Under the pieces are notes generated by a model. It searched no databases. It was given only the letters and a program-made list of their open reading frames with translations, and was not told the DNA's origin. DNA of 64,000 nt from Candidatus Lustribacter sp. GTDB lineage: Bacteria > Vulcanimicrobiota > Vulcanimicrobiia > Vulcanimicrobiales > Vulcanimicrobiaceae. Below, piece by piece: positions 31,377-62,334 of this stretch (position 1 is the stretch's first letter; each line of letters starts with the position of its first letter). The position numbers and the translations under genes were made by a program. The stretch covers positions 608,001 through 672,000 of the forward strand of contig OZ255842.1 in the NCBI GenBank assembly GCA_965277805.1, in the 5' to 3' direction.

Positions 31377-32330
31377 GTGAGCGGCTTGGAGAGCTGGAAG
31401 CTTCCGGGCAACGTGGTTCCGCCGGTTACGCCGTTCGATGCGGACGGCAACGTCGACTACGCGCGTTTGCAGCGCGAGATCGACTGGGTGGTCGCATCGT
31501 CACGTCCGGCCGCGATCTGCGTGGCCGGTGTCGAGGCGCAAGAGTATCAGTATCTTTCCGACACGGCGCGGCGCGAATTGATTCGGGAAACGATCGCTGC
31601 GATCGGCGGCCGGGTGCCGGCACTGGTCGGCATCTCGCACGCATCGTACCGGCGCTCGATCGACTTGGCGTCCCTCGCGCACCAGTTGGGCGCGTCGGCC
31701 GTGCAAGTGCTGCTGCCGAACCGTCCGTCGGGCGGCGCAGCGACCACCGGCGAGATCGTCAAGTACTACGAAGCGATCGTGCATGAGAGCGCGTTGCCGG
31801 TCGTCGCCTACCATAACCAAGGTCCGGGCGCCGATCTCGGCGTGCCCGCGTTGATGGAAGTGCTCTCGATCCCCGGCGTCGTGGGGTTGAAGGAGAGCTC
31901 GCGCAATCAGCGTTTCCTCGCGAACTTGCTGCGCGAAGCGCAAACGCGCAAGCTCGGACGGATCTTCACCACGCTCGAAGTGCTGCTCGGGACGCTGATC
32001 CTCGGCGCGGCCGGCGGCACGATGCCGGCGCCTGGTTCGGCGCTCGCGGCGCTGCTGGTGGAGGCGTTTCACGCGGGTGATTTAGCGCAAGCGGTGCGCA
32101 TCCAGCAACTGCTCAGCGAAATGCCGGCTCGCTGGATCGCGCACGGCCTCGTGGCTGTTTCGAAAGCGTCGCTGACCGCGATCGGTTTGGATTGCGGCCC
32201 GACGTATCCGCCGTTCGGCACGGTACCGGCGAAAGATGCCGAAGAGATTCGCGTGTTCTGGGAAGCGGCGCTGAACGAGTTTCCCGTGCTTCGCAGTTAC
32301 GAAGGGGAGCATTCCTTTGGCGCTCGTTGA
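31377..32330 (+). CDS. DHDPS/NAL family aldolase or hydratase-aldolase
   Basis: PPVTPFDADGNVD, AYH, Schiff-base GLKESS. The GxxGE motif is altered to GVEAQE. Confidence 0.85.
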   Translation: MSGLESWKLPGNVVPPVTPFDADGNVDYARLQREIDWVVASSRPAAICVAGVEAQEYQYLSDTARRELIRETIAAIGGRVPALVGISHASYRRSIDLASLAHQLGASAVQVLLPNRPSGGAATTGEIVKYYEAIVHESALPVVAYHNQGPGADLGVPALMEVLSIPGVVGLKESSRNQRFLANLLREAQTRKLGRIFTTLEVLLGTLILGAAGGTMPAPGSALAALLVEAFHAGDLAQAVRIQQLLSEMPARWIAHGLVAVSKASLTAIGLDCGPTYPPFGTVPAKDAEEIRVFWEAALNEFPVLRSYEGEHSFGAR

Positions 32331-33102
32331 CGGCATCAATCATCTGCTCGTCCAGGTGACGGATCTCGACCGCTCGGAGGCGTTCTACCGCGACGTTTTC
32401 GGCTTCGACGTCGTCGGGCGCGACCTCGTTGCGGAAGAAGGGCCGAATTCGCTCTTGCGCGCCGCCGGCGGACACATGATCCTGTTGGTGCAAGTTGCTG
32501 AGGTCACGCCGTTTCGTCCGAACAGCATGAGCACGCATCACGCGTTCTACTTACGCGAAGAACAGTACAATCAGGTGATGGAGCGGCGGCGAGCGAGCGG
32601 CTTCGACGTCGGCGACACGCGTGCGGTCTACCGCGCGAAAGGGCAGCTCAGTTTCGACGTCTTCGATCCCGACGGACACCGTTATCAAGTGCAGTCGGTC
32701 GGTAAGGCGTCGGCCGAAAATCTCCTCGCGAACGAAGGGAACGTCGCGTGCGGAAAGGTCGACGACTTTGCGATCGGTTCGGTCACGCACTTCAAGGACA
32801 AGCAGTTCTATCTGGTGCGTCAGGAACCGGGCTTTATGGCGATCTCGCACTGGTGTCCGCACATGAACGGCATGGTGGAGTATCGCGAATCGTACTGGTC
32901 GTTCTACTGCCCGTTTCACGGCGCGACGTTCAACCGCAACGGCGAGTGCACCGCGCATCAAAAGTACCCCACCATGCGCGTTCATCCGGTGTCGATCGGC
33001 GATGGCGGCGAGGTACTCGTGAACACGGACGAGCTGGTGAAGCGTCCTCGCGGGTTCAGTCCGGAGCAGTTCACGCCGGTGCCGGTGCTGCAGCATGGCT
33101 GA
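32317..33102 (+). CDS. VOC (glyoxalase/extradiol) domain fused to a Rieske [2Fe-2S] domain
   Basis: INHLLVQV..DLDRSEAFY...HHAF...DPDG, then CPH-x15-CPFHG. Confidence 0.85.
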   Translation: MALVDGINHLLVQVTDLDRSEAFYRDVFGFDVVGRDLVAEEGPNSLLRAAGGHMILLVQVAEVTPFRPNSMSTHHAFYLREEQYNQVMERRRASGFDVGDTRAVYRAKGQLSFDVFDPDGHRYQVQSVGKASAENLLANEGNVACGKVDDFAIGSVTHFKDKQFYLVRQEPGFMAISHWCPHMNGMVEYRESYWSFYCPFHGATFNRNGECTAHQKYPTMRVHPVSIGDGGEVLVNTDELVKRPRGFSPEQFTPVPVLQHG

Positions 33103-38617: not shown

Positions 38618-39226
38618 TTAGAGATACTTGAGGATCGACTCGGCGGTGAGTTCTTCGCCGGGGTCGTACTCCGGGGCGGTTTCGAGTTGTTCGAGGTCGT
38701 TGAGGCCGCTCTGTTTGTAGATGCGGTTGGTGATGACGATGACGCGCGCGGCGTGCTTGGGGTCGCCGTTGAAGTGCTGGCTGATGGTGTTCGGCGGGAT
38801 GTAGATCGTGTCGCCGGCTTCCCATTCGAAGCGCCGTTCTTCCGCTTGCGGTACCCACTGGTAGCGTTCGCCTTCGGCGATCGCGAGGTCGCAGTCGACG
38901 TGGATGTCGTAGCCGTAACCCTCGACCACGTATACGGCTTGTTCGGCCAGCTGACGGTGCCGTCCCGAACGGCTGCCGGGCGGAATGATCTGCATGTAGG
39001 CGTCGACCGTTTCGGCGCGCGTGTTCATCTCTTCGTTGACGAGGTGCTTGAGCAGACCGTGCGGTGAGTTCTCCCACGGATGATCGCTCGCTTTGATGAT
39101 CTTGCGGCGCGCTTTGTCGCGCTCCGGTTTGGTTTGCGCATCGTTGAGCAGCGAGGCGTAGTGCCGCCCGCCGACGTTCCCTTGGCGCCAGACCGAATAT
39201 TCATCCCACGGTGCTCGTTCGCTCAC
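38618..39226 (-). CDS. Cupin domain protein (gentisate dioxygenase-like half)
   Basis: PPGSRSGRHRQ..EQAVYVVEGYG, WEAGDTIYIPPN..SQHFN. GTG start overlaps the upstream TGA. Confidence 0.8.
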   Translation of the reverse strand: MSERAPWDEYSVWRQGNVGGRHYASLLNDAQTKPERDKARRKIIKASDHPWENSPHGLLKHLVNEEMNTRAETVDAYMQIIPPGSRSGRHRQLAEQAVYVVEGYGYDIHVDCDLAIAEGERYQWVPQAEERRFEWEAGDTIYIPPNTISQHFNGDPKHAARVIVITNRIYKQSGLNDLEQLETAPEYDPGEELTAESILKYL

Positions 39227-39855
39227 TTCTTTGCGCCCTCGACCGTCTCGAAGTGTACGTGCGCGTGATCCTCGTGGTAATGATCGTGATCGTGATCGTG
39301 TTCGTGTTCGAAGGGTGAGGGATCTTCGCGCGGCACGAAGCCGACACCGGTCGGTGAGGGCTCGTGCGAGAACGGCACGACGGTGCGCTGGAAGAGCATG
39401 TTCATGAAGAGATACATCGGTTTCGTCTTCATCACGAGGCAGCGCGCCGGCTTCTCGGTGCTGCGATTGAAGTGCTGGTGCACGCAGTTGTTGTGCACGA
39501 TCGCGATGTCGCCGGCTTCCCACTCATAGCGTACGCCGTCGTGCACTTCGGCGCCGATGCCGTCGAGAATGTAGAACACCGCCTCGTTGACGTGCCCGTG
39601 CTTTTGCGACACGCCGCCCGGCGCGTACTCTTCGAGATGAATGTGCAGCGTCTGGCCGAGTCCATGCGCGGGAATCAGGTAATCGCGGTTGTACATCTGC
39701 GGATAGCCGGAGAACGGCGTTTCCGAGCCCTTGCGCACGCGCGGCAGCGAACGCAGACGATTGAGTTCTTGCGTGAGATTGTACTGCCCCTCGATGCCGC
39801 GCACGAACACGCGCTCGTCCAGCGTATGATCGTGCGGTTTCTTCGCTTCTGCCAT
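39223..39855 (-). CDS. Cupin domain protein with His-rich tail
   Basis: PGGVSQKHGHVNEAVFYILDG.G, WEAGD...HQHFN, tail HEHDHDHDHYHEDHAHVH. Confidence 0.85.
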   Translation of the reverse strand: MAEAKKPHDHTLDERVFVRGIEGQYNLTQELNRLRSLPRVRKGSETPFSGYPQMYNRDYLIPAHGLGQTLHIHLEEYAPGGVSQKHGHVNEAVFYILDGIGAEVHDGVRYEWEAGDIAIVHNNCVHQHFNRSTEKPARCLVMKTKPMYLFMNMLFQRTVVPFSHEPSPTGVGFVPREDPSPFEHEHDHDHDHYHEDHAHVHFETVEGAKK

Positions 39856-39902
39856 GCGCCCTGAGTTCAACGCCGGAGGTCGAGCCCCCGGCAATCGAAA
39901 AC

Positions 39903-41042
39903 ATGCCGCTGATGCTTCAACGACGCGATTTCTTGGCCGGCGCCGCAGCTGCCGGCGCCGTGCTGGCGGGGGGCGAGCCGGCTTCGGCCGCGATCAGCTA
40001 TGCAAAACCCGCCGATTGGGACAAGATCGTGGCGGCGGCCAAACAAGAGGGCACGGTCGTGCTCTACGGTCCCTCGGGCGACTCGTTCTACGCCGCGCTC
40101 GTGACGCGTTTCCAGAAGGCGTTTCCGGAGATCAAGGTTCAGAGCACCATGGGCGTCGGCGCACAATTGGTGACGCGTCTGCAAGCCGAGCGCACGGCCG
40201 GACGTTATCTCGCCGACGTCTACGTCAACGGCAGCACCGTTGCGTTGCTGGGTCTCAAACCGGCCGGCGGCATGCAACCGCTTCCGCCGTGGCTCGTCCT
40301 GCCGGAAGTGACGAATCCCGGTGCGTGGCAGCAAAACATGCTGTGGTGGAACGACGGGCACGCCCCCAACACCAATCTCAGCTTCGCGGCGATTCTCTAT
40401 CCGGTCGCCTACTTCAATACCAACCTCGCCAAAGCGTCGTCCTTCCGCTCGTATTGGGATCTCGCCGATCCGAAATGGAAGGGTAAGGTCTGCTCCAACG
40501 ACATCCGCGTCATCGGCGCGGGAGGCGTTCCGGCGAGCTACATCTTCAAACAGCCCTCGCTCGGCGCGCCGTGGTTCAAGCGCTTCTTTGGCGACCTCGA
40601 CGTCGTGATGGGCCGCGATCAGCGTCAGCTCATCGATGGGCTCTCGCAGGGCCGCTACGCGATCGCGGGCTTCGTCTCAGCAGAAGAAGCGGCAACGGCG
40701 ATGGACCTCGGCCTGCCGATCGCACCGGTGCCGATCGATTCGCTCAAGGAAGGCTGCGCGGTCGGACCGGGCGGCGGCGCGATCTCGGTGCTCGACCGCG
40801 CGCCGCACCCGAACGCGGCGAAACTCTACACCAATTGGCTGTTATCGCGCGAAGGCCAAATCGCGTTTCAAGAAGAGACGAAGTACGCCTCGCTCCGCAA
40901 CGACGTGCCGAAGAGCAACCTCTTCCTCGCGCCGCGTCCGGGCAAAGCCTACGTCAACGCCGGCGCCGAACAGTACGGCTCCCTGCTCTCCGGCATCGGC
41001 ACGATGGTAACAGACATTCTCTCGAAGTCCGGCAAAGCCTAA
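39903..41042 (+). CDS. ABC solute-binding protein, Fe3+/AfuA/thiamine type (Tat signal)
   Basis: RRDFL, AAKQEGTVVLY, WDLADPKWKGK, APHPNAAKL..NWLLSREGQ. Confidence 0.88.
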   Translation: MPLMLQRRDFLAGAAAAGAVLAGGEPASAAISYAKPADWDKIVAAAKQEGTVVLYGPSGDSFYAALVTRFQKAFPEIKVQSTMGVGAQLVTRLQAERTAGRYLADVYVNGSTVALLGLKPAGGMQPLPPWLVLPEVTNPGAWQQNMLWWNDGHAPNTNLSFAAILYPVAYFNTNLAKASSFRSYWDLADPKWKGKVCSNDIRVIGAGGVPASYIFKQPSLGAPWFKRFFGDLDVVMGRDQRQLIDGLSQGRYAIAGFVSAEEAATAMDLGLPIAPVPIDSLKEGCAVGPGGGAISVLDRAPHPNAAKLYTNWLLSREGQIAFQEETKYASLRNDVPKSNLFLAPRPGKAYVNAGAEQYGSLLSGIGTMVTDILSKSGKA

Positions 41043-42007
41043 AGTTTTAACAGGCGGTCGGCGTTGCCGTGAGCGATCTTTTCTTTGTCGTCGGGGCTGA
41101 CGGGGAGGTCGTCAAGGAATTTGCGGGCGATGTCGTTGCGGCTGAACGGGTAGTCGACCGAGAACAGGATACGGTCGGCGCCGAACGTCAGGAGCGCGGC
41201 GAGAAACGGCGGGAACGAGAAGAAGCCGCTGCTCGTGATCGTCACGTGATCGAGGATCGTCTGGCTCACCGAACGCGGTAGACCGGTGATGCGTTGCGAG
41301 AGAAAGTCATCGCAACGCGCGAGCATCGTCGGCAGCCCTTCGCCCATGTGCCCGATGATGATCTTCAGACGTGGATGCTGATCGAACGTTCCGCTGAGCA
41401 CCATCCGCAGGACGTGGATCGCGGTCTCGGCGTGCCAGCCGAAGCCGGCGGTTGCGAACATCGATGAGACCTGTGGATTGTAGCCGTCGTAATATGCGTT
41501 GCGCACCGCCGCAGGCGGAACGCCGGGGTGAATGTAGATCGGCACGTTGAGCGCTTCGGCGCGCGCGAGCAGCGGTGCAAACGACGGATCGTCAAGGAAC
41601 TTGTCCTTGACCATGCCGCTCAACAGCGCGCCGCGGAAGCCGTGTTCGCGTACCGTGCGTTCGAGTTCGTCGGCCGCCGCCGCGGGTGCTGTCGACGGCA
41701 AGTGCGCGAACGCGGCGAACCGTGTTGGGTGTTTCCGCACGACTTCAGCAAGCGCGTCGTTGTAGCGCTTGGCGTAATCCGGCCCCGCTTCCGGCGAGAG
41801 CAGCACGGCACCCGGTCCGGGAACGGAGAGAATCTGCAGCGTGATGCCGTTCTCGTCCATCGACGGCAGACGCGCGCTTTCGATATCCTCGAGTGCATCG
41901 GCCCGGCTCGCACCGGAGCGGCCGCCGCGTTCGGCCGGAGCACGCTCCGCCAGCTCTTTGCTGAAGGCTGCGATGGAGACGTGTTCTTCGAGGGCTACGA
42001 TGCGCAT
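41039..42007 (-). CDS. Amidohydrolase-2 family decarboxylase, paralog of 6875-7846
   Basis: VALEEH, IYIHP, GHMGE, FSVDYPF, and the same C-terminus KIAHGNADRLLKL. Confidence 0.9.
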   Translation of the reverse strand: MRIVALEEHVSIAAFSKELAERAPAERGGRSGASRADALEDIESARLPSMDENGITLQILSVPGPGAVLLSPEAGPDYAKRYNDALAEVVRKHPTRFAAFAHLPSTAPAAAADELERTVREHGFRGALLSGMVKDKFLDDPSFAPLLARAEALNVPIYIHPGVPPAAVRNAYYDGYNPQVSSMFATAGFGWHAETAIHVLRMVLSGTFDQHPRLKIIIGHMGEGLPTMLARCDDFLSQRITGLPRSVSQTILDHVTITSSGFFSFPPFLAALLTFGADRILFSVDYPFSRNDIARKFLDDLPVSPDDKEKIAHGNADRLLKL

Positions 42008-42022
42008 GAGCGGCTCCGTTCA

Positions 42023-42055
42023 AAGCATGGAAAGACCAACCCTCCGCTAAAATAC
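42023..42055. promoter_or_regulatory. Divergent promoter element, copy 2
   Basis: AAGCATGGAAAGACCAACCCTCCGCTAAAATAC, 30/33 identical to 7859-7891. Confidence 0.6.
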
Positions 42056-42065
42056 CGGCTTGGCC

Positions 42066-43160
42066 ATGGCCGTCAGTGAAGCGAACGTCACCGTCACCGT
42101 CGACGGATTGTACAAGTCCTACACCGATCAGAAGCGTGTGGTCGGTGCCGTGCGCGGCGTGAGCTTCACAATTCGCGAAGGTGAGTTCTACACGCTGCTC
42201 GGACCGAGCGGCTGCGGCAAGACGACCACGATGCGCTGTATCGCCGGCCTCGAACAGACGGAACGAGGCGAGATCTCGATCCATGGTCAGCTCGTGTCCT
42301 CACCAGAAAAGAACGTGTTCGTTCCGCCCAACAAGCGCGACATCGGGATGGTGTTTCAGAGCTACGCGATCTGGCCGCACATGACCGTGTTCCAAAACGT
42401 AGCCTTTCCGCTCAGCGTGGCCGGCGTCCGCAGCGGTTCGAAAGAGATGCGCGAGCGCGTCGAGGAAGCGCTGGCGCTGGTCGAAATGGAAGACTACGGC
42501 GACCGCTTCGCAACGCAGCTCTCCGGCGGCCAGCAGCAGCGCCTCGCGCTCGCGCGTGCGCTCGTCCGCCGGCCGGCGCTCTTGCTCTTGGACGAGCCGC
42601 TCTCGAACCTCGATGCGCGGCTGCGCGATACGATGCGGACCGAGTTGCGCTCGCTGCAGCGCCGTCTCGGGATCACGACGCTCTACGTCACGCACGATCA
42701 GACCGAGGCGTTGAGCATAAGCAGCCGCATCGCGGTCATGCAAGACGGGCAGATCGTGCAGGAAGCGACGCCGCGCGAACTCTACCGCTCGCCGGCGAAC
42801 GCCTTTGTGGCGGAGTTCCTGGGCGTGAGCAATCGCATTCCGTGCACGGTCGCCGAAACCGGTGCCGTCGACACGAGCTTTGGCCGGGTGCAGCTCGCAA
42901 GCTCGGGCGCAGCTAGCGGCGCGACCGGCGTCGTGACGATCCGTCCCGAGCATCTGCGCCTGCACCGCAGTAGCGCGGCGCTGCCGAACGCCTTTGCGGC
43001 GCGCATCGCCTCGATCTCGTTCTTCGGCGAGCAATCGGAGTGCCACGTCGAGCTCAACGGCGCGACGTTGCGCGCGCGCGTGCCCTCCGATACGGAGTTC
43101 GCCGGCGGCGACGACGTGTGGCTCGAACTGCCCGCGCCGTCGTGCCGGCTGATCCTATGA
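42066..43160 (+). CDS. ABC transporter ATP-binding protein (FbpC/PotA type, TOBE domain)
   Basis: GPSGCGKTT, LSGGQQQR, LLLDEP, YVTHDQ. Confidence 0.93.
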   Translation: MAVSEANVTVTVDGLYKSYTDQKRVVGAVRGVSFTIREGEFYTLLGPSGCGKTTTMRCIAGLEQTERGEISIHGQLVSSPEKNVFVPPNKRDIGMVFQSYAIWPHMTVFQNVAFPLSVAGVRSGSKEMRERVEEALALVEMEDYGDRFATQLSGGQQQRLALARALVRRPALLLLDEPLSNLDARLRDTMRTELRSLQRRLGITTLYVTHDQTEALSISSRIAVMQDGQIVQEATPRELYRSPANAFVAEFLGVSNRIPCTVAETGAVDTSFGRVQLASSGAASGATGVVTIRPEHLRLHRSSAALPNAFAARIASISFFGEQSECHVELNGATLRARVPSDTEFAGGDDVWLELPAPSCRLIL

Positions 43161-44296
43161 CCGTCACGCGCCGGCGCGACTTTCTGCGTGCGGGCGCGGC
43201 CGCGGCACTGGCGGCGTCGGCCGCCGCTCCGGCAAGCGCCGCAATCAGCTATCAGAAACCGCCGGCTTGGGATGCGCTCGTGCGTGCCGCCACTGCAGAA
43301 GGCGCGCTCGTGCTCTACATTCCCGAGGGCGATGAGTACGAAGCGGCGCTGGTCACGCGCTTTCAGCGTGCGTTCCCGGCGATCAAGGTGACGAGCGCGA
43401 TCAACAGCGGCGCCGGAATCTCGCGCATCATCGTGGAGCGCTCGGCCGGGCGTTACATCCCCGACATTTGGGTTCAAGGCAGCACGATCGCGCTGCTCCG
43501 CCTCAAGCCGGTCGGCGCGCTGGCTACGCTGGATCCGCTCATCATTCTGCCCGAAGTTCTCGATCGCTCCGCATGGCTGCAGAATCAATTGTGGTGGAAC
43601 GACGCGCAGAAGCCGCTTACCAACATCAGCTTCGCCGGGTTGATGCTGCCGCCGGCCTTTGTCAACACCTCGATCGTGAAGCTCAGCGAGTTCAAATCGT
43701 ACTGGGATCTGGCGGATCCGAAGTGGCGCGGCAAGATCGCGGTCACCGACATCCGCACGATCGGGCCGGGCAGCGTGCCCGCGAGCTTCGTCTACCGGCA
43801 TCCCAAACTCGGTCAACCGTGGTTCGAGCGGTTCTTCGGCACGCTCGACGTCACGCTGAGCCGCAGCCAGCGCCAAATGGTCGACTGGTGCGTGCAAGGG
43901 CAGTATCCGATTATCGCGTTCACGTCGGCGACCGAGGCCTATACGGCGATGCAGCAAGGATTGCCGATCGAGCAGATCGCGCTCGAGCAACTCCGCGAAG
44001 GCGGTGCCGTCGGGCCCAATACCGGTTCGATCTCCGTGGTGAAGCCGGCGCCGCACCCCAACGCCGCAAAGCTCTATCTGAACTGGCTGCTTTCACGCGA
44101 GGGTCAACTCGCGTGGCAAGAAGAGACGAAGCAGTGCTCGCTGCGTCTCGACACGCCCAAGGATGGTTTGTATTTGGCGCCGCGCATGCACGCCGGCATC
44201 ACCTACGCCAACGGCGGCGCCCAAGAATACGGCGAAGCGGCGGCCGCCCTCAACGACGTGATCACCGGGATCTTGAAAAAGGCGGGGAAGGCCTAA
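43157..44296 (+). CDS. ABC solute-binding protein, paralog of 39903-41042
   Basis: RRRDFL Tat motif, SYWDLADPKW, APHPNAAKL. ATGA overlap. Confidence 0.88.
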   Translation: MTVTRRRDFLRAGAAAALAASAAAPASAAISYQKPPAWDALVRAATAEGALVLYIPEGDEYEAALVTRFQRAFPAIKVTSAINSGAGISRIIVERSAGRYIPDIWVQGSTIALLRLKPVGALATLDPLIILPEVLDRSAWLQNQLWWNDAQKPLTNISFAGLMLPPAFVNTSIVKLSEFKSYWDLADPKWRGKIAVTDIRTIGPGSVPASFVYRHPKLGQPWFERFFGTLDVTLSRSQRQMVDWCVQGQYPIIAFTSATEAYTAMQQGLPIEQIALEQLREGGAVGPNTGSISVVKPAPHPNAAKLYLNWLLSREGQLAWQEETKQCSLRLDTPKDGLYLAPRMHAGITYANGGAQEYGEAAAALNDVITGILKKAGKA

Positions 44297-45339
44297 CCGC
44301 GGACTTGCGCGAGCTCGCGAGCGCGTTTGAACGAGTCTTTATCCTTCACCGCAAACGCTTCGAGACGCGCGTGCTCGCGCGGGATGCGGATCATCGGTTC
44401 GTTCTCGGCCGGGTCGCGCACGAGCGCGATCGGATCCTCACCGCGCTCGACGCGCTTCATGTTTTCTTCCAGCAGTTTGTGGTAGAGGATCACGCCTGTG
44501 TCGCCGGCCGTGAGGTGCTCCTGCGTGCGATCGGCGATCGGCCCTTGCGCCACCCAGGCAATGAAGTCTTGTTTGGGGATCGTGTCGCCGTACGGCGCTT
44601 CGTCGCCGTCGAAGAGATTCAGATAGCGCACCGTGAGTGACTTCGGCTCCGCGCCCGGCGCGCGCGCGATCGTGCGGTAACCGATCTGGATCGTGTTCGT
44701 GTCGTCGACCGGAATGCGATACTGAAAACTCGCCTCGCCGGTCTGGCCGACGGCGAGCAGGTTCGGGAAAATAAGCGGATGACCGGTCGTCCAGTCGTCG
44801 CAGTCTTCGCTCGAGCCTTCGAGCAGGCGCCGCTTCATGATGCCGAAGCGGTAGACGTCGAAGGCGATCTTCAAATGCTGTGCGGGCTCCATCATCGGCG
44901 GCTTGCCGAGCCGCGCGCGTTCGTAGTTGCCGAACCGTGCGTGCAAGAATTCGAAGTGCACCGGATCGACGGAGTTGTCCATGCACTGCAGCCAATTGCA
45001 CGGCAGCGCCACGATCTCGACCGCACGATCGAGATCGTCCGCAACGAGAATGTCCCAGCGCGGCAAGAGCGGTGCCGGCTGCGGTCCGAAATAGGCGAAC
45101 AGCAAGCCGCCGAGTTCTTGCACCGGATAAGCCGCGTGCGCGGCGGCCAGGCTGAAGCTGCCGCTCGGTTCGCGCCGCAGGCTGAGGTCTTCCCCGAAAA
45201 AACGCACGGCTTTCACCGGAGCGGCGTCGAGCTCGATCGCGGCGCCGATGGGGTGCCAATAACGCCGCAAGAGGTTGCCCATCGGGGTTCCGGGCCCGAT
45301 TTGCGTCAACCGTTCGTTCTGCGATTGCGTCGTCGCCAT
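44293..45339 (-). CDS. Rieske non-heme iron oxygenase alpha subunit (phthalate 4,5-dioxygenase/LigX group) lacking the Rieske cluster segment
   Basis: GPGTPMGNLLRRYWHP, YPVQELGGLLFAY, CNWLQCMDNSVDPVHFEFLH, QD..AW.AQG, EHL...D.G. No CxH or CxxH. Confidence 0.85.
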   Translation of the reverse strand: MATTQSQNERLTQIGPGTPMGNLLRRYWHPIGAAIELDAAPVKAVRFFGEDLSLRREPSGSFSLAAAHAAYPVQELGGLLFAYFGPQPAPLLPRWDILVADDLDRAVEIVALPCNWLQCMDNSVDPVHFEFLHARFGNYERARLGKPPMMEPAQHLKIAFDVYRFGIMKRRLLEGSSEDCDDWTTGHPLIFPNLLAVGQTGEASFQYRIPVDDTNTIQIGYRTIARAPGAEPKSLTVRYLNLFDGDEAPYGDTIPKQDFIAWVAQGPIADRTQEHLTAGDTGVILYHKLLEENMKRVERGEDPIALVRDPAENEPMIRIPREHARLEAFAVKDKDSFKRARELAQVRG

Positions 45340-45367
45340 AGCTGTACTATCCGCCGCTCCGGCAGGG

Positions 45368-47062
45368 CTACCTGCTCGAGCGCAGGCCGACGTTCAAACC
45401 GAGCGTGCGCACGAGGATCGCCATGACGGTGGTGATCGCGGTAATGACGACCGTGATCACCGTCGCCGCTTCGCGCTGACCGTCGGCGACGAACCCCAAG
45501 GCCAGGAGCGAGAGCGTGCGCGTATCGGACGTCGCCAGCAGGATGATGTTCGATGTCGCGTTGGCGGCGTACATGAACTTGATCGCCGCCACCACGATGA
45601 GGGTCGGCGCAATCAGGGGCAGCACGATCTGGAAGTACGTGCGGACCCAGCCGGCCCCCGACATGCGCGCACTCTCCTCGAGATCGCCGCGCAGCTGCAG
45701 GAACGCCGCCTTGAGCGTTTGCGTCGAGAGCGTCATGCCGCTGAGGACGATCGCGATGACGAGCACCCAGATCGTGCCGTAGATCGGCCGGAAGATCGGC
45801 GTGCCGACGAACATCCACAATAGGCCCAGACCCGCGAGCGCGCCGGGAATCACGCTCGGCAGCCACAACAGAAAATCGAGTACGCCTTTACCCCAGGCCA
45901 CGCGCGCACGCACGAGCACATATGCCACGACCGAGAAGATGATCGGCGCGACGACGGCCGAGACGATCGCGATCTCGAATGTGTTGAACAGCGACTGATC
46001 GAAGGCGGGCGTGCTCAACGTGCGCTGCCAGTTGCCGAGCGTCCACGGGTGTGCGAGGGTGAAGAAGCCGAAGCGCGTCATGAAGCTGCCGGCGATCACC
46101 GACGCCAGCGGAACGGCCACGAGTAACCCCACGACCCCGGCGATCAGCACGAATACGGGCCACGTCCAGCGGCCGAGATCCATTTGCGCGGATTGGATGC
46201 GGCCGGTCACAGTGGTGTAGCTGCGGCGCGTCGTGAGCCAGCGCTGCACCGGCATCGCGATGAGCAGCAGCACCAGCGTCACGCTGCCGAGCGCGGTCGC
46301 CTGACCGAGCAGCGGCGGCACCTGTTGCGCGAGATCGACGATCTTCGTCGAGAACACGTAGAACCCGAACGGCACGCCGAGCAGCAGCTCGATCTCGAAG
46401 GATTCGAACAGCCGCACGAAGCCGAGGAAAAACACGATCACGAGCGCCGGGGTCATGATCGGCAACGTCACGCGCAGCAGCGTGCGCCAGCGATCGGCGC
46501 CCGACGTGTAGCCCGCTTCTTCGAGCGCCGCATCCATGTTGCGAAAGGCCGGCGTCAGCAGGATGACTTTCTCGGAGATGTCGCGGGCCATCAAGTGCAC
46601 CCAAACGATCCCGGCAAAGGAATAAATATTGAACGGTCCCGCGACGTGAAACGTCGTGGCCAGAAAATTGTTGAACACGCCGCGCGGATCGAGGAGCAGC
46701 ATCCACCCGAGCGTCGCCGAAAGCGGCGGCAAAAAGTACGAGAGCCAGAAGCCGAACTCGAGCGCCCGTCCGAACGGGACTTTGCTGCGGCCGAGCAGCC
46801 ACGCGAGCAGGATGCCGACGGGAAACGAGATCGCTTGATAGCATAGGCCGACCGCGATGGTATTCCACAGCGCTTGGCCGAGCCCGGGCCCGCGCCACGC
46901 ATCCGCCCACGCCCGCGCCGAATACGCCGGCGCTTGACCGGGCCCCGCGACGTTGAAGCTGTTGATGACGATCAGCGCGAGCGGGTAGACGACGAAAAAG
47001 CCGATCACCGCGATCAGCAGCAGCACGACGAGCTGCGCCGCGCTTGGCCGGGCGCGTGTCAT
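45368..47062 (-). CDS. ABC permease, FbpB/AfuB type (duplicated EAA loops)
   Basis: Many TM helices, LEEAGYTSGA and LEESARMSGA. Real start is MTRARP at 47062. Confidence 0.9.
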   Translation of the reverse strand: MTRARPSAAQLVVLLLIAVIGFFVVYPLALIVINSFNVAGPGQAPAYSARAWADAWRGPGLGQALWNTIAVGLCYQAISFPVGILLAWLLGRSKVPFGRALEFGFWLSYFLPPLSATLGWMLLLDPRGVFNNFLATTFHVAGPFNIYSFAGIVWVHLMARDISEKVILLTPAFRNMDAALEEAGYTSGADRWRTLLRVTLPIMTPALVIVFFLGFVRLFESFEIELLLGVPFGFYVFSTKIVDLAQQVPPLLGQATALGSVTLVLLLIAMPVQRWLTTRRSYTTVTGRIQSAQMDLGRWTWPVFVLIAGVVGLLVAVPLASVIAGSFMTRFGFFTLAHPWTLGNWQRTLSTPAFDQSLFNTFEIAIVSAVVAPIIFSVVAYVLVRARVAWGKGVLDFLLWLPSVIPGALAGLGLLWMFVGTPIFRPIYGTIWVLVIAIVLSGMTLSTQTLKAAFLQLRGDLEESARMSGAGWVRTYFQIVLPLIAPTLIVVAAIKFMYAANATSNIILLATSDTRTLSLLALGFVADGQREAATVITVVITAITTVMAILVRTLGLNVGLRSSR

Positions 47063-47919
47063 GAGATGCGGTAGCGTCCTTCCAGCGTCACGTAATCGTT
47101 GAGGCCGACGAGACTCGTCAGATCGTCGAACGCCACCATCGGCGGCCCGGCCGGAATATCGTCGGCGACCAGTGCTGCGAGCGCCGCTTGCATCGCGTAG
47201 ACGGCTGCCGGCAGCACGACGTTGTACGTCACGACTTTGAAGCCCATCGCGCGCAAATCGGCGCGGCTGACGACCGGCGTTTTCGGCATCATGCTGGCCC
47301 ACGTGTACTTGAACGAGCCCGCGAAGCGGCGCATCTCCTCGATGCCGGCGAGCGCCTCGATGAAGACGATGTCCGCACCTTCCTCGACGAAATCGTTGCA
47401 CCGTGCCAGCGCTTCGTCGAGCCCGTGACCGGAGCGCGCGTCGGTGCGGCCGATGATCACGATATCCTTCGCGCCGCGCGCATCGACGGCCGCGCGCATC
47501 TTCATGCGCGCCTCGGCCCGCGAGATCACTTCCCGCGCGCCGCCGTAGTGCCCGCATTTCTTCGGCCACACCTGGTCCTCGATCAAGAGCGACGCCGCCC
47601 CGGCCTTGGCGAACTCGGTGACGGTGCGGCGCACGTTCATCGCGTTGCCGTAGCCGGTATCCGCGTCGGCGATGATCGGAAAGCCCGGCGTCGCGTCGCA
47701 CGTGTTGCGGATCTGATCCAGCACGTCGGTGAACGTGATCAAGCCGGCGTCCGGCAGGGCGTAGCGGTGCGCCGAAATGGCAAACCCGCCGAGCAGCGCG
47801 ATCGGGACGCCGCTGCGCTGGGCGAGGCGCGCCGAGAGCGGATCGCCCACGAGGGGGCAGAGCAGCAGGTCGTCGTTCGCGAGCAGCTCGCGGAACGTCG
47901 CGGTAGCATTCGTTTCCAC
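47059..47919 (-). CDS. Isocitrate lyase/PEP mutase family enzyme (2,3-dimethylmalate or methylisocitrate lyase-like)
   Basis: DADTGYG, IEDQVWPKKCGH, GRTDA, GADIVFIE. GTG start with RBS. Confidence 0.9.
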   Translation of the reverse strand: METNATATFRELLANDDLLLCPLVGDPLSARLAQRSGVPIALLGGFAISAHRYALPDAGLITFTDVLDQIRNTCDATPGFPIIADADTGYGNAMNVRRTVTEFAKAGAASLLIEDQVWPKKCGHYGGAREVISRAEARMKMRAAVDARGAKDIVIIGRTDARSGHGLDEALARCNDFVEEGADIVFIEALAGIEEMRRFAGSFKYTWASMMPKTPVVSRADLRAMGFKVVTYNVVLPAAVYAMQAALAALVADDIPAGPPMVAFDDLTSLVGLNDYVTLEGRYRIS

Positions 47920-47995
47920 GCGACCCCCTTCTGCGAGGGAACCGGCATCCATCCAGCGCAGTTCGGCCCATGCGCCATCTGAGCGGGCAAATACA

Positions 47996-50029
47996 TTGAT
48001 CGTCGTAGCGATCGATATCGGCGGTACCTTCACCGACCTCTTGGGCTTCGATGATGCCGCCAAGACCTTCGTTCAAGCCAAGAGCCTGACGACGCCCGCG
48101 CAGTTGAGCGACGGCATCATCGACTGCATTCGCAAGAGCGGCTTGAACGGCGGCGCGATCGACGAGCTCATTCACGGTTCCACGACCGCGATCAATACCT
48201 TGATCGAACGCAAAGGTGCGAAGACCGGGCTGATCGTCACCACCGGGACGCGCGACGTGTACATCATCGGCCGTGGGAACCGCCCGGAATCCTACAACCT
48301 GCTCTTCCATCGCCATCGTCCGCTCGTCTCGCGCCGGATGACACGCGAGATCTCCGAACGCACCCTGGCCTCGGGCGAAGTCTATCGCCCGCTGGTTCGC
48401 GCGGAACTCGAAGACGCCGCGCGGTTCTTCGCCGAGAACGGCGTCGAGGCGGTGGCTGTGTGCTTCCTGCACTCGTATGCGAACCCGGAGCACGAGCGCA
48501 TCGCCGGCGACGTGATCCGTCAAGCGATGCCGGACGCGTACGTCTCGCTCTCGCATGAGATCTTGCGCGAGTACCGCGAGTTCGAACGCATGTCGACGAC
48601 GGTCGTGAACGCGTACGTCGGCCCGCGCGTCGGCGGCTACGTCAAGAGCCTCGCATCGAGTCTCGGCGAGGCCGGCTTTCGCGGCAACCTTTCGATCATG
48701 CGCTCCAACGGCGGCGTGATGTCGCCGGAGCTCGCAACGATTCACCCCGTCGCGATGATGGAGTCGGGACCGGTCGGCGGTATCATCGCGGCCGCCCGCG
48801 TCGGCACCGCGCTCAGCTATCCCAACGTGATCTCGTTCGACATGGGCGGCACGACTGCGAAAGCGAGTTTGATTCAGGGCGGTGAACCGAGCATCGCGCC
48901 GGGCTATTACGTCGGCGGTTACGCCAGCGGGCATCCGGTGATGATTCCGCTGGTCGACATCGTCGAAGTGGGCGCCGGCGGCGGGAGCATCGCGTGGATC
49001 GATGAGGTCGGCGCGCTGAAGGTCGGCCCGCAGAGTTCGGGTGCCGATCCGGGACCGATGTGCTACGGCGGCGGCGGGTTGGAACCGACGATTACCGATG
49101 CCAACGTCGTGCTCGGACGCCTGAATCCGAACGACTTCCTCGGCGGCGCGATGCAGCTCGATGCCGCTGCCGCGGAGCGCGGCATCGCCGAACAGATCGG
49201 CGCGCCGCTCGGCCTCAGCACGGTTGCGAGCGCGCAGGCGATCGTGCAGATCGCCGTCTCGAAGATGTCGCTCGCGGTACGTGAGGTATCGGTCGTCAAA
49301 GGCTTCGATCCGCGCGACTTCGTGCTCGTCGCCTCCGGAGGCGCGGGCCCGCTGCACGCGTTGGCGATCGCGCGCGATTTGCACATACCCACCGTGGTCG
49401 TGCCGCTCTTTCCATCGCACTTTTCGGCGCTGGGCATGTTGCTCGCCGACGAACGGCACGACTTCGTGCGCACGCACTTTGCCGATTTGGGCACGGTCGA
49501 TCTCACCGCGGTCGCGGCGGTCTTCGAAGACATGCTGATCGAAGCACGCGCACGCTTGAGCGGCGGGCGCGAAAGCTCGCGACAATACCAGCTCGACATG
49601 CGCTACGTCGGGCAAGAGTTCGCGCTGCCGGTGCCGGTCACCGAAGAGCAACTGACGAGCGGTGATCGCGCGACGATTCGCGCCGCGTTCGATCAGCTCT
49701 ACGAACAGCGCTACGCCTACCACTCACCCGACGAGCCGGTGGAGATGATCAACCTGCGCCTGACCGCCTACGGCCGGCAGCCGAAGTTGGAATTCCCCCG
49801 CCTCGCGCGGTCGGCGAAGCCGGCGCCGAGCGCGCACCGCGACGTCTATCTCGGCGGAACGGCCGCGGTGGCGACGCCCGTCTACCGGCGCGACGAACTG
49901 CCCGCCGGGGCGGTCGTTGCGGGTCCGGCGATCGTGCAAGAACTGGGCACAACGACCGTGCTCTTCGAAGGCGACGTGGGCACCGTCGCGGATTCCGGCG
50001 AACTCATCGTGTCCGTAGGAGCGGAGTAA
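47996..50029 (+). CDS. Hydantoinase/oxoprolinase A (ATP-binding) subunit
   Basis: IDIGGTFTD, HGSTTAIN, SGPVGG, DMGGTT, GAGGGSIA. TTG start inferred. Confidence 0.92.
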   Translation: MIVVAIDIGGTFTDLLGFDDAAKTFVQAKSLTTPAQLSDGIIDCIRKSGLNGGAIDELIHGSTTAINTLIERKGAKTGLIVTTGTRDVYIIGRGNRPESYNLLFHRHRPLVSRRMTREISERTLASGEVYRPLVRAELEDAARFFAENGVEAVAVCFLHSYANPEHERIAGDVIRQAMPDAYVSLSHEILREYREFERMSTTVVNAYVGPRVGGYVKSLASSLGEAGFRGNLSIMRSNGGVMSPELATIHPVAMMESGPVGGIIAAARVGTALSYPNVISFDMGGTTAKASLIQGGEPSIAPGYYVGGYASGHPVMIPLVDIVEVGAGGGSIAWIDEVGALKVGPQSSGADPGPMCYGGGGLEPTITDANVVLGRLNPNDFLGGAMQLDAAAAERGIAEQIGAPLGLSTVASAQAIVQIAVSKMSLAVREVSVVKGFDPRDFVLVASGGAGPLHALAIARDLHIPTVVVPLFPSHFSALGMLLADERHDFVRTHFADLGTVDLTAVAAVFEDMLIEARARLSGGRESSRQYQLDMRYVGQEFALPVPVTEEQLTSGDRATIRAAFDQLYEQRYAYHSPDEPVEMINLRLTAYGRQPKLEFPRLARSAKPAPSAHRDVYLGGTAAVATPVYRRDELPAGAVVAGPAIVQELGTTTVLFEGDVGTVADSGELIVSVGAE

Positions 50030-51771
50030 TGGCAGTAGCAGATCTCGCGAGCACCAGCCTCGACCCGGTCACCCTGGAAGTGATCCGCAACGCGCTGCCG
50101 GCGGTCGCCAATGAAATGGCCGCCGATCTGCAGCGCACCTCGTATAACATGATGATCTACGAGGTCCGCGATTTCTGCACGGCCCTGATCGATCCCGACG
50201 GCGCGCTGGTGAGTCAGAACGTCGGCGGCGTGTCGCATTTCGTGGCCGACCTCGGCGTGATCATCACCGACGGCGTGAAGCGTTACGGGAAGGACGGTTT
50301 CGCGCCGGGGGACGTGCTGATCACGAATCACCAAGCCGTGGCCGGGCAGCACCTCAACAACATCGTTATCTACATGCCGTACTTCTTCGAGGGCGAACTG
50401 CTGATGTTCTCGATGGTGCGGGCGCACTGGATCGACGTCGGCGGCATGAGCACGGGCTTCGGGGCAGGCCCGGAAGTCGGCGACCCGTGGCTCGAAGGCT
50501 TGCAGCTCGACCAGCTCAAGATCTACGAAGGCGGCAAAATCAACGATGCGCTCTATCGCGTCATCAGCGACAACATCCGTTTTCCCGAATCGTCGCTCGG
50601 CGACTTGAAGTCGCAGATCGCCGCCTGCCGCCTGGCGGCGCGCCGGCTCGACGAGATGTTTCAGAAATACGGCAAGCCGGTGATTCTCGATGCGATCGCG
50701 CGCATTTTCGATGAGACCGAGAAGAAGTGCCGCAACGTCATCGCACGCTTGACCGACGGTGTGTACGAAGCGTCGGCGGCGTTCGACGACGACGGCGTGC
50801 TGCTCGGCGTGCCGGTGCCGCTGCACGCGAAGGTCACGATCGCCGGCAGCGACATGACGATCGATCTTTCCGGCTGTTCGGGCGAACGCAAGGCGGCCGT
50901 CAACTCGCGCACGCTCGCGGCCGCACGCGTGGCGTACAAGGCGCTGACCGGTCCGAACGATCCGGTGAACGAGGGATCGTTTCGCGCGCTCGACGTGATC
51001 ATTCCCGAAGGGAACATCATGATGGCGCGTTTCCCCGCGCCGATGTCGGGCTGGAGCCTGATCGTGCCGACGGTCGTCGATACGATCATCGCGGCGTTGG
51101 CGAAGGCGATGCCGGATACGATCCCGGCGGCACACCACGGATTGCTCGGCGGTGCGGTCGTGTTCTTCGGCGTCGATCCGGTGACGAAACGGCGCTTCGT
51201 CGTGCAGAGCATCGAAGGCGGCGGCTGGGGCGGGCGCCCGTACGAAGACGGCGAGTCGGGCACGGTCTCGGTGTGTCAGGGCGACGTGCGCAACGGTTCG
51301 ATCGAGGGCATCGAGCTGAAGTGTCCGGTGCTGGTCGAGCAGCGTGCGCTGCGGCCGAACTCGGGCGGTGCGGGCAAATACCGCGGCGGCCTCGGCATCG
51401 ACATGCAAGTGCGGAACTTTGTCGACGGGTTGTGGAATTTCGAAACGTCGAAGCGCTTCGAATGTCCGCCGTGGGGATTGTGGGGCGGGACGTCCGGCGA
51501 AAACGCCGGCTACCTGCTGCGGATGTCGGGCACCGAAGCGTTCAAGCCGACCTCGGGCAGCCGCAAGCCGATCCCGGTCGACTCCTCGGTGATCGTGCGC
51601 ACGGGCGGCGGCGGCGGCTGGGGCAACCCGCACGAACGCGACCTCGCAGCCGTGCAGCACGACGTCCTCGAGGACTACATCTCCATCGAAGCAGCCCGCG
51701 ACCTCTACGGCGTAGCCATCACCCCCGACGGCATAATCGACGAAGCCGCCACAGCCAAACTCCGCGCCTGA
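50029..51771 (+). CDS. Hydantoinase B/oxoprolinase subunit
   Basis: DPVTLEVI, HLNN, AHWIDVGG, SGGAGKYRGG, TGGGGGWG. Confidence 0.92.
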   Translation: MAVADLASTSLDPVTLEVIRNALPAVANEMAADLQRTSYNMMIYEVRDFCTALIDPDGALVSQNVGGVSHFVADLGVIITDGVKRYGKDGFAPGDVLITNHQAVAGQHLNNIVIYMPYFFEGELLMFSMVRAHWIDVGGMSTGFGAGPEVGDPWLEGLQLDQLKIYEGGKINDALYRVISDNIRFPESSLGDLKSQIAACRLAARRLDEMFQKYGKPVILDAIARIFDETEKKCRNVIARLTDGVYEASAAFDDDGVLLGVPVPLHAKVTIAGSDMTIDLSGCSGERKAAVNSRTLAAARVAYKALTGPNDPVNEGSFRALDVIIPEGNIMMARFPAPMSGWSLIVPTVVDTIIAALAKAMPDTIPAAHHGLLGGAVVFFGVDPVTKRRFVVQSIEGGGWGGRPYEDGESGTVSVCQGDVRNGSIEGIELKCPVLVEQRALRPNSGGAGKYRGGLGIDMQVRNFVDGLWNFETSKRFECPPWGLWGGTSGENAGYLLRMSGTEAFKPTSGSRKPIPVDSSVIVRTGGGGGWGNPHERDLAAVQHDVLEDYISIEAARDLYGVAITPDGIIDEAATAKLRA

Positions 51772-61541: not shown

Positions 61542-62333
61542 ATGCGATTGAGCAACAAAACCGCGATCGTCACTGGGGCGACGGGGCAATTCGGTCACGT
61601 GATCGCGCGTGCGTACGCGCGCGAGGGCGCGAACCTCTACCTCTGCGAATTTTCCGAAGCGGCCGCCGCGCTGACGAAGTTGCGTGACGAAATCGCGGCG
61701 ACCGGCGCGAAGGTCGAGTGCGGGACGCACGACGTGAGCACGCAGGCCGGCGCGGCCGAACTCGCCGCGGCTGCACTGAAGTCGTTCGGCCAGATCGACA
61801 TCTTGCTCAACGGCACGTCGGGCGGCGGGCACGGCAAGGTGTTCGAGATTACCGAGGCCGCCTGGCGCCGGGCAATCGATCGCGGTCTCACGTCGTATTT
61901 CTTCACGTGCCAGCAAGTCGGTAAGGAAATGGCGCGGCGCGGCTCGGGCAAGATCATCAACATCAGTTCGATCGTGGGCCGGCTCGGCTCGGGCGGCGCC
62001 ATCGGCTGGGGCGCGAACAACGGCGGAATCGACGCGATGACCGCGGCCTTCGCGCAAGCGCTCGGCATGTACGGCATCAACGTCGTCGCGCTGGCGCGCG
62101 GCGCCACCGACACCACGCCGTATTCGGACGAAGCGATGAACGAACGGTTGCGGCGCTTGCCGTTCGGCCGGCTCGGCCGCGAAGACGACATCGTGGGTCC
62201 GGCGATCTTTCTCGCCACCGACGAAGCGAAGTGGATCGCCGGTTCGGTCGTCTACTGCGACGGCGGCTACGTGACCGCGGCCGCCACCGATGCCGAGTCG
62301 CGCCCCACCGAAGTGCCGTACCGCGGCAAGTAA
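61542..62333 (+). CDS. SDR-fold protein with non-canonical catalytic motif
   Basis: KTAIVTGATGQFG, FGQIDIL, GKIINISS, PFGRLG, DGG. WGANN replaces YxxxK. Confidence 0.85.
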   Translation: MRLSNKTAIVTGATGQFGHVIARAYAREGANLYLCEFSEAAAALTKLRDEIAATGAKVECGTHDVSTQAGAAELAAAALKSFGQIDILLNGTSGGGHGKVFEITEAAWRRAIDRGLTSYFFTCQQVGKEMARRGSGKIINISSIVGRLGSGGAIGWGANNGGIDAMTAAFAQALGMYGINVVALARGATDTTPYSDEAMNERLRRLPFGRLGREDDIVGPAIFLATDEAKWIAGSVVYCDGGYVTAAATDAESRPTEVPYRGK

Positions 62334-62334
62334 C

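Follow-up and report, generated by a model that had tools for sequence, protein, structure and literature searches.

A LigXa/phthalate-type oxygenase alpha subunit without its Rieske cluster module, kept under purifying selection in Candidatus Lustribacter

The window, a stretch of 64,000 nucleotides of a Candidatus Lustribacter contig (genome G000 below), carries on its minus strand a gene for a 348-residue LigXa/phthalate-type alpha subunit without a cluster (44293..45339, ATG start, stop codon at 44293-44295). Our results support the conclusion that this protein is the alpha subunit of an aromatic-ring oxygenase minus its small iron-sulfur module, and that it is still under selection. The defining feature of a Rieske oxygenase is a pair of metal centres on one subunit. 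The catalytic domain and the fold place the protein in the LigXa/phthalate branch of alpha subunits. At the sequence level it has the two histidines (D-x2-H-x4-H) and the later aspartate of a predicted mononuclear iron site, and lacks the CxH ... CxxH signature of the Rieske [2Fe-2S] centre. Since all four cluster ligands are missing, it is a derived homologue and not a strict two-centre Rieske oxygenase.

Domain content was examined with Pfam: the LigXa_C family (PF19301) is matched with an E-value of 2.1e-12 (47.3 bits for a cutoff of 27), the Rieske domain PF00355 is absent at E-values up to 0.1, and a regular-expression scan found no cluster motif either. Both domains are present in 118 of the 120 best homologues. 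Residues 1-68 (45136..45339, minus strand) correspond, from the alignment and an AlphaFold2 model (mean pLDDT 89.7), to a conserved N-terminal helix and to basal beta-strands left over from the Rieske domain (modelled strands 28-33, 42-47, 50-56 and 62-65); residues 73-348 (44296..45123, minus strand) form the LigXa_C catalytic domain according to Pfam, alignment and fold match. The latter contains the mononuclear-iron motif D121-N122-x2-D125-x2-H128-x4-H133 (44941..44979, minus strand), where N122, D125, H128 and H133 occupy invariant columns in 61 aligned homologues. Equally invariant are Q257, D258, W262 and Q265 of the motif Q-D-x3-W-x2-Q, in which D258 (44566..44568, minus strand) is the presumed carboxylate ligand. 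From the family motif we take H128, H133 and D258 to be the iron ligands, and D125 to be the aspartate that forms the bridge to a neighbour's cluster in Rieske oxygenases. The closest solved relatives are the phthalate/isophthalate dioxygenases 7FJL, 7V25 and 9INA and the Cupriavidus oxygenase 7FHR. They match the nearest intact homologue by sequence with E-values of 6.5e-50 to 5.6e-44, and the model of the cluster-less protein at about 4e-20 (TM 0.64-0.69, identity 19-22%), the top fold matches being the phthalate dioxygenase chains 7v25/7v28 (E about 4e-20). Unlike our protein, these enzymes have a cluster and form alpha3-alpha3 hexamers, as described in the accessible part of PMC12445004.

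Compared with the closest intact homologues (protein cluster P0003 and others, 402-404 residues), 54 residues are missing (402-54 = 348). The loss is in frame (162 bases), begins with the first Cys ligand, ends immediately ahead of 'AYPV' and takes in both the CxH and the CxxH loop; the catalytic domain with its iron site is retained, as is the basal beta-sandwich. The alignment places the junction between H68 (45138-45136) and A69 (45135-45133), in a fast-evolving scar of codons 55-72 (45124..45177, minus strand, junction 45136|45135), and the junction residues differ in each of five deleted orthologues. The original prediction had described an in-frame loss of the segment with the four cluster ligands, with frame, flanks and Fe motif kept. 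The alignment and the lack of PF00355 agree with the loss, and the invariant columns of D125, H128, H133 and D258 with the retention; the predicted junction interval (about 45130-45147) contains the aligned one. The predicted size of about 49 residues is reproduced by BLASTP against the gene at 63454, but has to be replaced by 54 when the closest intact homologues are used.

It had also been proposed to look for homologues with the same deletion and for sequence data across the junction. Such homologues were found in the genomes of the sister species G003 and G004, in the metagenome contig L021 and in the protein clusters P0001 (13 member sequences) and P0002 (18), and Logan contigs span the junction without a gap: record 7 of X1, a run which may be the source sample, covers 45055-45400 with no difference, and record 22 of X5, from a separate study, covers 44965-45197 with 9 differences and no gap. 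The deletion, seen in the assemblies of three species, in a metagenome contig, in two protein clusters and in the Logan contigs of two studies, is real and not an assembly error; an artefact of assembly or sequencing, in favour of which no point was found, has a practically negligible probability. No intact orthologue was found within the genus, where the best intact match reaches 65-69% and the closest intact paralogue of G000 is C1:494166-495383 (67%); at the syntenic site in G007 and G001, the closest homologues of the neighbouring binding protein (79% and 74%, respectively) precede a bicupin gene and not an oxygenase. Selection was measured by pairwise dN/dS (NG86) on three closely related species, which give values that are not independent: 0.058 for G000-G003, 0.127 for G003-G004 and 0.107 for G000-G004 over the whole gene (79 synonymous and 34 non-synonymous differences, dS 0.41, Fisher p 1e-28). 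Codons 1-54 (0.08-0.10) and the catalytic part (0.03-0.09) are constrained, and codons 55-72 (0.66-1.5, indistinguishable from 1, Fisher p 0.48) are the only neutral stretch of the gene. The flanking genes give 0.08-0.10 (binding protein) and 0.03-0.05 (permease): the gene is not decaying, and is under purifying selection like the transporter genes around it. That it is a newly disabled copy heading for decay, redundant in a family of about 90 paralogues, is accordingly very improbable. One cluster-less relative in G002 is indeed a 228-residue remnant lacking the H-x4-H motif, few of the matches listed are cluster-less (2 of 120, 4 of 120 and 2 of 120), and the G003 orthologue has a 1-base insertion. 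Against this stand not only dN/dS values equal to those of neighbouring genes with dS up to 0.41, but also a frame open in G000 and G004, and older cluster-less lineages still found at 68-70% identity. Moreover, 17 synonymous and no non-synonymous differences lie 3' of the G003 insertion, a sign that selection continues to act on the frame there, and a second frameshifted gene in G003 points to an assembly error behind the insertion. The outcome named beforehand as fatal to the original prediction, namely close homologues keeping the cluster and relaxed selection on this copy, did not occur: the deletion is kept and inherited at a dN/dS of 0.06-0.13, and the catalytic-only subunit that had been proposed is a maintained protein and not a wreck. 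In the metatranscriptome run X10 only short pieces were present, most with 4-8 differences and probably derived from paralogues; one 81-base piece without differences (44252-44332) falls on the overlap with the binding-protein gene, and the run gives no sign that our gene is expressed. X5 and X10 were the ones used among the soil, peat and permafrost runs with shares below 0.2, which are not taken as evidence of habitat.

The loss of the module is not restricted to this locus. A second paralogue (C1:3206285-3207388 in G000) is cluster-less in G000 and G003 and intact in G004 (96% identity), with a dN/dS of 0.058 after the loss. A third one (C1:3948984-3950081) lacks the cluster in G000, G003 and G004 and has it in G002, G006 and G001 (86% identity), with dN/dS of 0.08-0.12 among the deleted copies and 0.05-0.12 among the intact ones; just two residue differences are fixed between the groups outside the gap. 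Its loss in G004 and in G000/G003 was counted as one event, and the junction residues, which differ between G004 and G000/G003, fit one event followed by neutral drift. Paralogues 2 and 3 lost the same module independently of our gene; their junctions have drifted beyond reading for microhomology at the deletion ends. At least five more full-length cluster-less paralogues (LigXa_C without PF00355) occur among the matches listed: two in G002 and one each in G004, G005 and G006. On the catalytic-domain tree (121 rows), 11 state changes are required. Our protein retains the iron ligands and the bridging aspartate, and so does each of the 7 other full-length cluster-less paralogues examined. In G006 the TAG stop codon of an intact paralogue shares one base with the GTG start codon of the cluster-less gene behind it, a translationally coupled pair (L060 4989-6266 and 3856-4989), and in G002 an intact paralogue has a cluster-less gene about 270 bases upstream in the same orientation; of the 8 full-length cluster-less lineages in the genus, only these 2 show tandem pairing.

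The gene is located in an ABC-uptake cluster. Its immediate upstream neighbour, on the same strand and 28 bases from the start codon, is a fused two-domain ABC permease (45368..47050, minus strand; PF00528, TIGR03262-like architecture below cutoff). The permease-oxygenase order is repeated in G003 and G004, and the two genes probably form one transcript. The same-strand row is headed by a PEP-mutase/isocitrate-lyase-family gene (47059..48063, minus strand; PF13714, E 1.5e-36), whose product is prpB-like with 195 bits, below the cutoff of 354. On the other side, a periplasmic solute-binding protein gene (43157..44296, plus strand) converges on the oxygenase, the stop codons overlapping by 4 bases, and is accompanied by an ABC transporter ATPase with a TOBE domain (42060..43160, plus strand), identified by profile matches. 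Neither a Rieske gene nor a GST-like gene was found beside the oxygenase among the Pfam-scanned ORFs of 39223-51771; the nearest Rieske-motif ORFs are 12 and 18 kb distant. The ORF 62290-62955, 17 kb away, looks GST-like by eye and has no Pfam match. The Pfam catalytic domain is named after LigXa, the oxygenase of the 5,5'-dehydrodivanillate O-demethylase in Sphingobium SYK-6, and homologues of our protein are labelled LigXa in source databases. Equivalence to this DDVA O-demethylase was considered and rejected: an NCBIfam search at E-values up to 0.1 returned no family, hence no LigXa equivalog, and the neighbourhood is that of an ABC transporter and not of the lig cluster (ligZ, ligY). LigXa also differs in having a Rieske domain, and works with the ferredoxin LigXc and the reductase LigXd (PMC6874591, accessible part).

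Our preferred reading, with a probability of about 0.4, is that the protein is a catalytic alpha-prime subunit which joins an intact paralogue in a mixed oligomer and is fed by the Rieske centre of the latter. According to the accessible part of PMC12445004, Rieske oxygenases form head-to-tail C3 oligomers, in which one cluster lies about 12 A from the iron of the neighbour, and electrons are transferred over this distance between subunits, as against 45 A within a subunit. As electrons normally reach an iron site from the neighbour's cluster and not from that of its own subunit, a protein without cluster could still turn over next to one that has it. The in-frame deletion excised exactly the [2Fe-2S] cluster-binding subdomain and would have left the rest working; the product would co-assemble with an intact paralogue, of which the genome has roughly 90, receive electrons from the Rieske centre of its neighbour via the retained bridging D125, and turn over when placed beside a cluster-bearing subunit. 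What we infer here is that the subunits mix, that electrons take this path and that the protein is catalytic at all. The tandem pairs of G006 and G002 lend the idea of a hetero-oligomer indirect support. A putatively compatible donor for a cluster-less subunit also exists, since the intact C1:1219031-1220374 shares the lost Rieske segment of paralogue 3 at 86.8% identity (62% for the catalytic domains). Several points count against the mixed oligomer: tandem pairing is limited to the two lineages mentioned; besides the distances given for our gene, no Rieske-motif ORF was found within 10 kb of paralogues 2 or 3; co-assembly of paralogues 57-67% identical is putative; and in a mixed trimer each cluster-less subunit deprives one neighbouring iron site of its donor. 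The partner initially named at 63472 is unsupported: this partial gene (63454-63999, plus strand; PF00355, E 1.2e-19) is no more than distantly related (23% identity; it sits on a long branch, 1.69, of the tree) and was rejected. The same holds for the VOC-Rieske fusion at 32317, suggested as a donor, which is present in G000, G001, G003 and G007 and was not found in the deletion-bearing G004 (84% complete), a species pattern mismatched to the deletion.

The main competing explanation by analogy to a known system, which we hold to be rather unlikely, is a cluster-less homo-oligomer whose electrons would come from a small stand-alone Rieske protein or from a Rieske-bearing reductase docking where the subdomain was lost. 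NdmC, the non-heme iron oxygenase of the N7-demethylase NdmCDE of Pseudomonas putida CBB5, is likewise devoid of its own cluster, which is on another polypeptide, the reductase NdmD carrying an extra one (PMC4408171, accessible part); in the open literature searched, this was the only work found on a Rieske oxygenase without its own cluster. A distinct ferredoxin such as LigXc sets a similar precedent (PMC6874591, accessible part), 17 short ORFs of G000 matched in a motif scan, about 11 of them judged small Rieske-ferredoxin-like from length and motif, and a shared soluble donor would explain the loss of the module in three unlinked paralogues of one clade. The resemblance to NdmC, which was compared by description and not for sequence kinship, is nevertheless partial: our protein loses only the cluster-binding subdomain and keeps the basal beta-sandwich, and no NdmE-like GST gene is clustered with it, unlike in NdmCDE. 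No NdmD-like fusion of Rieske, flavin/NAD and plant-type 2Fe-2S domains was found by regular expression among G000 ORFs of at least 150 residues, where even the combination of Rieske and plant-type ferredoxin motifs is missing (a weak test); the lost segments have no relocated copy in the genome, the best tblastn matches being paralogues at 87% identity or less; the operon holds neither a Rieske gene nor a GST-like partner, and the VOC-Rieske fusion does not follow the deletion across species. Alternatively, electron supply may be dispensable, the chemistry being paid for by the substrate or by peroxide, or the protein may act as a beta subunit does, as a binding or structural partner without catalysis of its own. 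The peroxide shunt occurs in Rieske oxygenases. Purifying selection proves only some function, no donor is linked to the gene, and database clusters exist which have the catalytic domain only, without a Rieske family on any member (e.g. a LigXa_C-only one with 398 members; these come from a language-model look-up with scores of 0.86-0.89 and are leads only). We nonetheless find this unlikely, because the two residues fixed outside the gap after the loss in paralogue 3 are unlike a change of function, because an aspartate serving only to couple the iron to the neighbour's cluster is kept in 8 of 8 full-length cluster-less paralogues, and because a scaffold would not need intact iron ligands.

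The mixed oligomer may be extended to the genus as a whole. With about 100 oxygenase paralogues per genome, cluster-less alpha-prime subunits, arisen at least 8 times, would be regular parts of combinatorial heteromeric trimers, a generalization we consider doubtful. Two paralogous alpha subunits do meet in one complex in the NdmA/NdmB alpha3-alpha'3 heterohexamer; unlike our protein, NdmA and NdmB each carry their own cluster, and mixing within a trimer is not described in the accessible part of that source (PMC12445004). If the mixed-oligomer reading is true, one Rieske subunit powers the catalytic pocket of another, an architecture so far undescribed for this enzyme class. Subunit mixing would then be a new route to diversify the oxidation of aromatic compounds in soil and peat bacteria, and would offer engineers a natural template for splitting the electron-input module from the catalytic one. 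If no Rieske partner is needed, a new electron route to the iron site would be defined. These proteins are in any case natural variants minus one metal centre, which have arisen repeatedly and are kept by selection.

The target ORF (44293-45339, minus strand) encodes 348 residues in which Pfam recognizes the C-terminal catalytic domain of LigXa but nothing of the Rieske type; no NCBIfam family was assigned to it. A clear Rieske domain was found by Pfam in the product of the partial gene at 63454-63999, the intact oxygenase used as reference in the original prediction. Alignment of the two products, only 23% identical, reproduced the predicted gap of about 49 residues; the predicted length does not hold against the nearest intact homologues, relative to which exactly 54 residues are absent (402 - 54 = 348). 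The missing piece begins with the first Cys ligand, takes in the CxH loop as well as the CxxH loop and stops just short of 'AYPV'; we take it to be the cluster-binding subdomain of the Rieske fold. The beta-strands flanking the gap and the conserved N-terminal helix are retained, and N122, D125, H128, H133, Q257 and D258 occupy invariant columns across 61 homologues. Among the 120 best homologues listed in a database search, 118 have lengths of 391-422 residues and match PF19301 as well as PF00355; the two others, protein clusters P0001 (93% identity) and P0002 (91%), both of 348 residues, lack PF00355. The AlphaFold2 model is of high confidence over its whole length, with a mean pLDDT of 89.7, and 93-97 across the junction blocks, values which speak for plausibility and not for stability, the input alignment (61 homologues) being mostly made of intact homologues. 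Structurally it is matched best by phthalate and isophthalate dioxygenases, which also come out as the closest solved relatives when the sequence of the nearest intact homologue is the query. By the two-centre definition the target is not a Rieske oxygenase, and it is most aptly described as a derivative of the LigXa/phthalate branch that lacks the cluster.

The same deletion was found in two further species of the genus, G004 (92% protein identity) and G003 (95%), with the gene order around the target kept in both, and a metagenome contig of 112 kb encodes a protein identical to that of G004. Contigs assembled from public sequencing runs (Logan) cross the junction without a gap: one, whose run may be the source sample, shows 0 differences, and another, from a different study, shows 9. 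The predicted deletion is thus real and shared by homologues, and that it should be an artefact is barely conceivable. Purifying selection acts on the target, with dN/dS of 0.107 between the source genome (G000) and G004 (dS 0.41), 0.058 between G000 and G003 and 0.127 between G003 and G004, pairwise values that are non-independent because the three species are close kin. In the catalytic part (codons 73-348), where relaxed selection would have counted against the original prediction, the ratio is 0.03-0.09 and selection is not relaxed. It is 0.08-0.10 in the N-terminal stub (codons 1-54) and 0.66-1.5 at the junction (codons 55-72), where it is indistinguishable from 1 and where the residues are unlike one another in all five deleted orthologues. 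The flanking binding-protein and permease genes gave 0.08-0.10 and 0.03-0.05. One extra base is inserted in the G003 copy, and 3' of it 17 synonymous and 0 non-synonymous differences from G000 were counted. We read this insertion as either a fault of the assembly or a very recent change, since a second G003 gene is likewise frameshifted and the assembly (10 contigs) has an estimated completeness of only 72%. Single frameshifts in two of the few G003 genes inspected (L012; C2:1067050-1067833), in sequence otherwise under selection, together with this low completeness despite so few contigs, suggest an indel-prone assembly. Decay of the target appears quite improbable beside these ratios.

The source genome is a single contig of 5.53 Mb containing the window (C1:608001-672000), and 117 of its ORFs of at least 150 residues match the family profile. 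The LigXa/phthalate-type alpha subunits are thus very largely expanded in it; first-look candidates number 50-194 per genus member versus 0-7 in other genera of the same family (2-4.5 Mb). The CxH...CxxH motif is missing from five of the 117 ORFs. Three of these are full-length genes, one being the target, and two are fragments located in a degraded cluster (C1:1081561-1084364). This cluster holds four overlapping family fragments (profile positions 4-278, 3-108, 115-360 and 295-380) and has the appearance of two oxygenase genes that were broken or frameshifted.

Both other full-length genes miss the same module as the target. Paralogue 2 (C1:3206285-3207388), which shares 47% identity with the target, has no cluster module in G000 and G003; the G004 orthologue is intact, at 96% identity over the shared part. 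The dN/dS of paralogue 2 after the loss is 0.058 (29 synonymous and 6 non-synonymous changes). Its start codon, at the same position, is ATG in the intact G004 gene, GTG in G003 and TTG in G000 (L039/L040/L041). Paralogue 3 (C1:3948984-3950081), with 32% identity to the target, is without the module in G000, G003 and G004; its orthologues in G002, G006 and G001, 86% identical, retain it. For paralogue 3 dN/dS is 0.08-0.12 in the deleted group and 0.05-0.12 in the intact one, and only two fixed residue differences separate the groups outside the gap. The losses in the three genes, which belong to three different subfamilies, are therefore independent of one another. A short junction-spanning profile gave 281 matches in the eight genomes of the genus; among the 150 listed, 14 run through the junction, eight already known and six new. 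Five of the new ones (two in G002, one each in G004, G005 and G006) are of full length, with the iron motif preserved and a LigXa_C but no PF00355 match; the sixth, also from G002, is a remnant of 228 residues that lacks the His pair. There are therefore at least eight full-length cluster-less lineages within one genus. Outside it cluster-less forms are small lineages. Relative to paralogue 2, P0124, P0134 and P0202 (a partial sequence) show 68-73% identity, and P0121, at 93-94%, groups in the tree with paralogue 2's own cluster-less lineage. P0300 together with P0391 makes up another lineage, and P0246 shares 92% catalytic-domain identity with the G006 gene. This tree, built with FastTree from just the catalytic domain (121 rows and 242 columns, after exclusion of gap columns), requires 11 changes between deleted and intact states, a count from a quick method with some unreliable deep branches; four loss events are backed independently of it by intact orthologues at 79-96% identity. 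A language-model look-up returned, as leads only, LigXa_C database clusters mostly or wholly without the Rieske family, one being commonest in Vulcanimicrobiota.

On the minus strand the target is preceded by genes for a PEP-mutase-family protein and a fused ABC permease, and it converges with an ATPase and binding-protein pair. Its stop codon overlaps that of the binding-protein gene by 4 bases (44293-44296), which leaves no room for a terminator between them. Paralogue 3 lies between hisA and a GGDEF gene, and paralogue 2 is flanked by a BNR-like gene on one side and by one for an NMT1-type binding protein on the other; no Rieske-motif ORF was found in the neighbourhoods examined of the three genes. 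Tandem pairs were observed in two other lineages. In G006 the cluster-less gene comes after an intact paralogue, and its GTG start shares one base with the TAG stop of the latter (57% identity counting gaps); in G002 a cluster-less gene, itself behind a MarR gene, precedes an intact paralogue on the same strand by about 270 bases (54% identity). The window also holds a hydantoinase/oxoprolinase A and B pair (47777-51771, plus strand; best match caprolactamase subunits, below cutoff) and amidohydrolase_2, cupin and many NMT1-type binding-protein genes, which together point to a dense catabolic island.

In Rieske oxygenases the cluster is about 12 Å from the neighbour's iron and about 45 Å from its own, so that electrons always come from another polypeptide (PMC12445004, section 6). 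Lack of a cluster does not by construction make a subunit dead; a cluster-bearing neighbour is all that it needs. The evidence fits a catalytic alpha-prime subunit that would be served in trans by a Rieske centre: iron ligands and bridging Asp are kept, the sequence hardly changes after the loss, and selection resembles that on intact orthologues. The iron of such a subunit would receive electrons from the Rieske centre of a neighbouring subunit, and the donor would be an intact paralogue in a mixed oligomer. In view of the tandem pairs with translational coupling, and of how many paralogues there are to draw on, we tentatively regard this donor as the most likely one (probability of about 0.4). 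The Rieske segment lost from paralogue 3 has an 87% identical counterpart in an intact paralogue, with only 62% identity between the two catalytic domains; a near-native donor surface thus exists in the cell.

The main rival is a separate Rieske protein as donor, as in NdmCDE, where NdmC lacks the cluster and NdmD has an extra one (PMC4408171). About 11 small Rieske-ferredoxin-like ORFs were detected by a motif scan of G000. A motif scan of its ORFs of at least 150 residues revealed no NdmD-like fusion, no relocated copy of the lost domain was found in this genome, nor any linked partner gene around the target, and we hold such a donor to be somewhat unlikely. A role needing no external electrons, or a purely structural one, is judged unlikely. 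Only two reductase-like ORFs with flavin/NAD and plant-type 2Fe-2S motifs appeared in a simple motif scan of G000 (696136-697368 and 2507336-2508502), very few for more than 100 oxygenase genes. A glyoxalase/VOC-Rieske fusion of 261 residues (32317-33102, plus strand) stands ahead of two more VOC genes; it occurs in G000, G001, G003 and G007, and no copy turned up in G004.

In principle the target would work as NdmC does, but its anatomy is different: the whole domain is absent from NdmC whereas a subdomain is excised here. The NdmCDE system further includes a Rieske-reductase fusion, of which the G000 scan gave no counterpart, and a GST-like partner, none being linked to the target. As NdmE is GST-like, we note a 221-residue ORF (62290-62955, plus strand), GST-like by eye and without Pfam match at E 1e-5, about 500 bases upstream of the intact gene at 63454, with a PNPOx gene (62974-63414) between them. 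Beyond the NdmC literature no published account of cluster-less Rieske oxygenase forms was found, subscription journals being outside the scope of the search. What makes these genes noteworthy is their recurrence within a single genus, the clean excision of a subdomain and the tandem alpha/alpha-prime operons, which together make heteromeric assembly directly testable.
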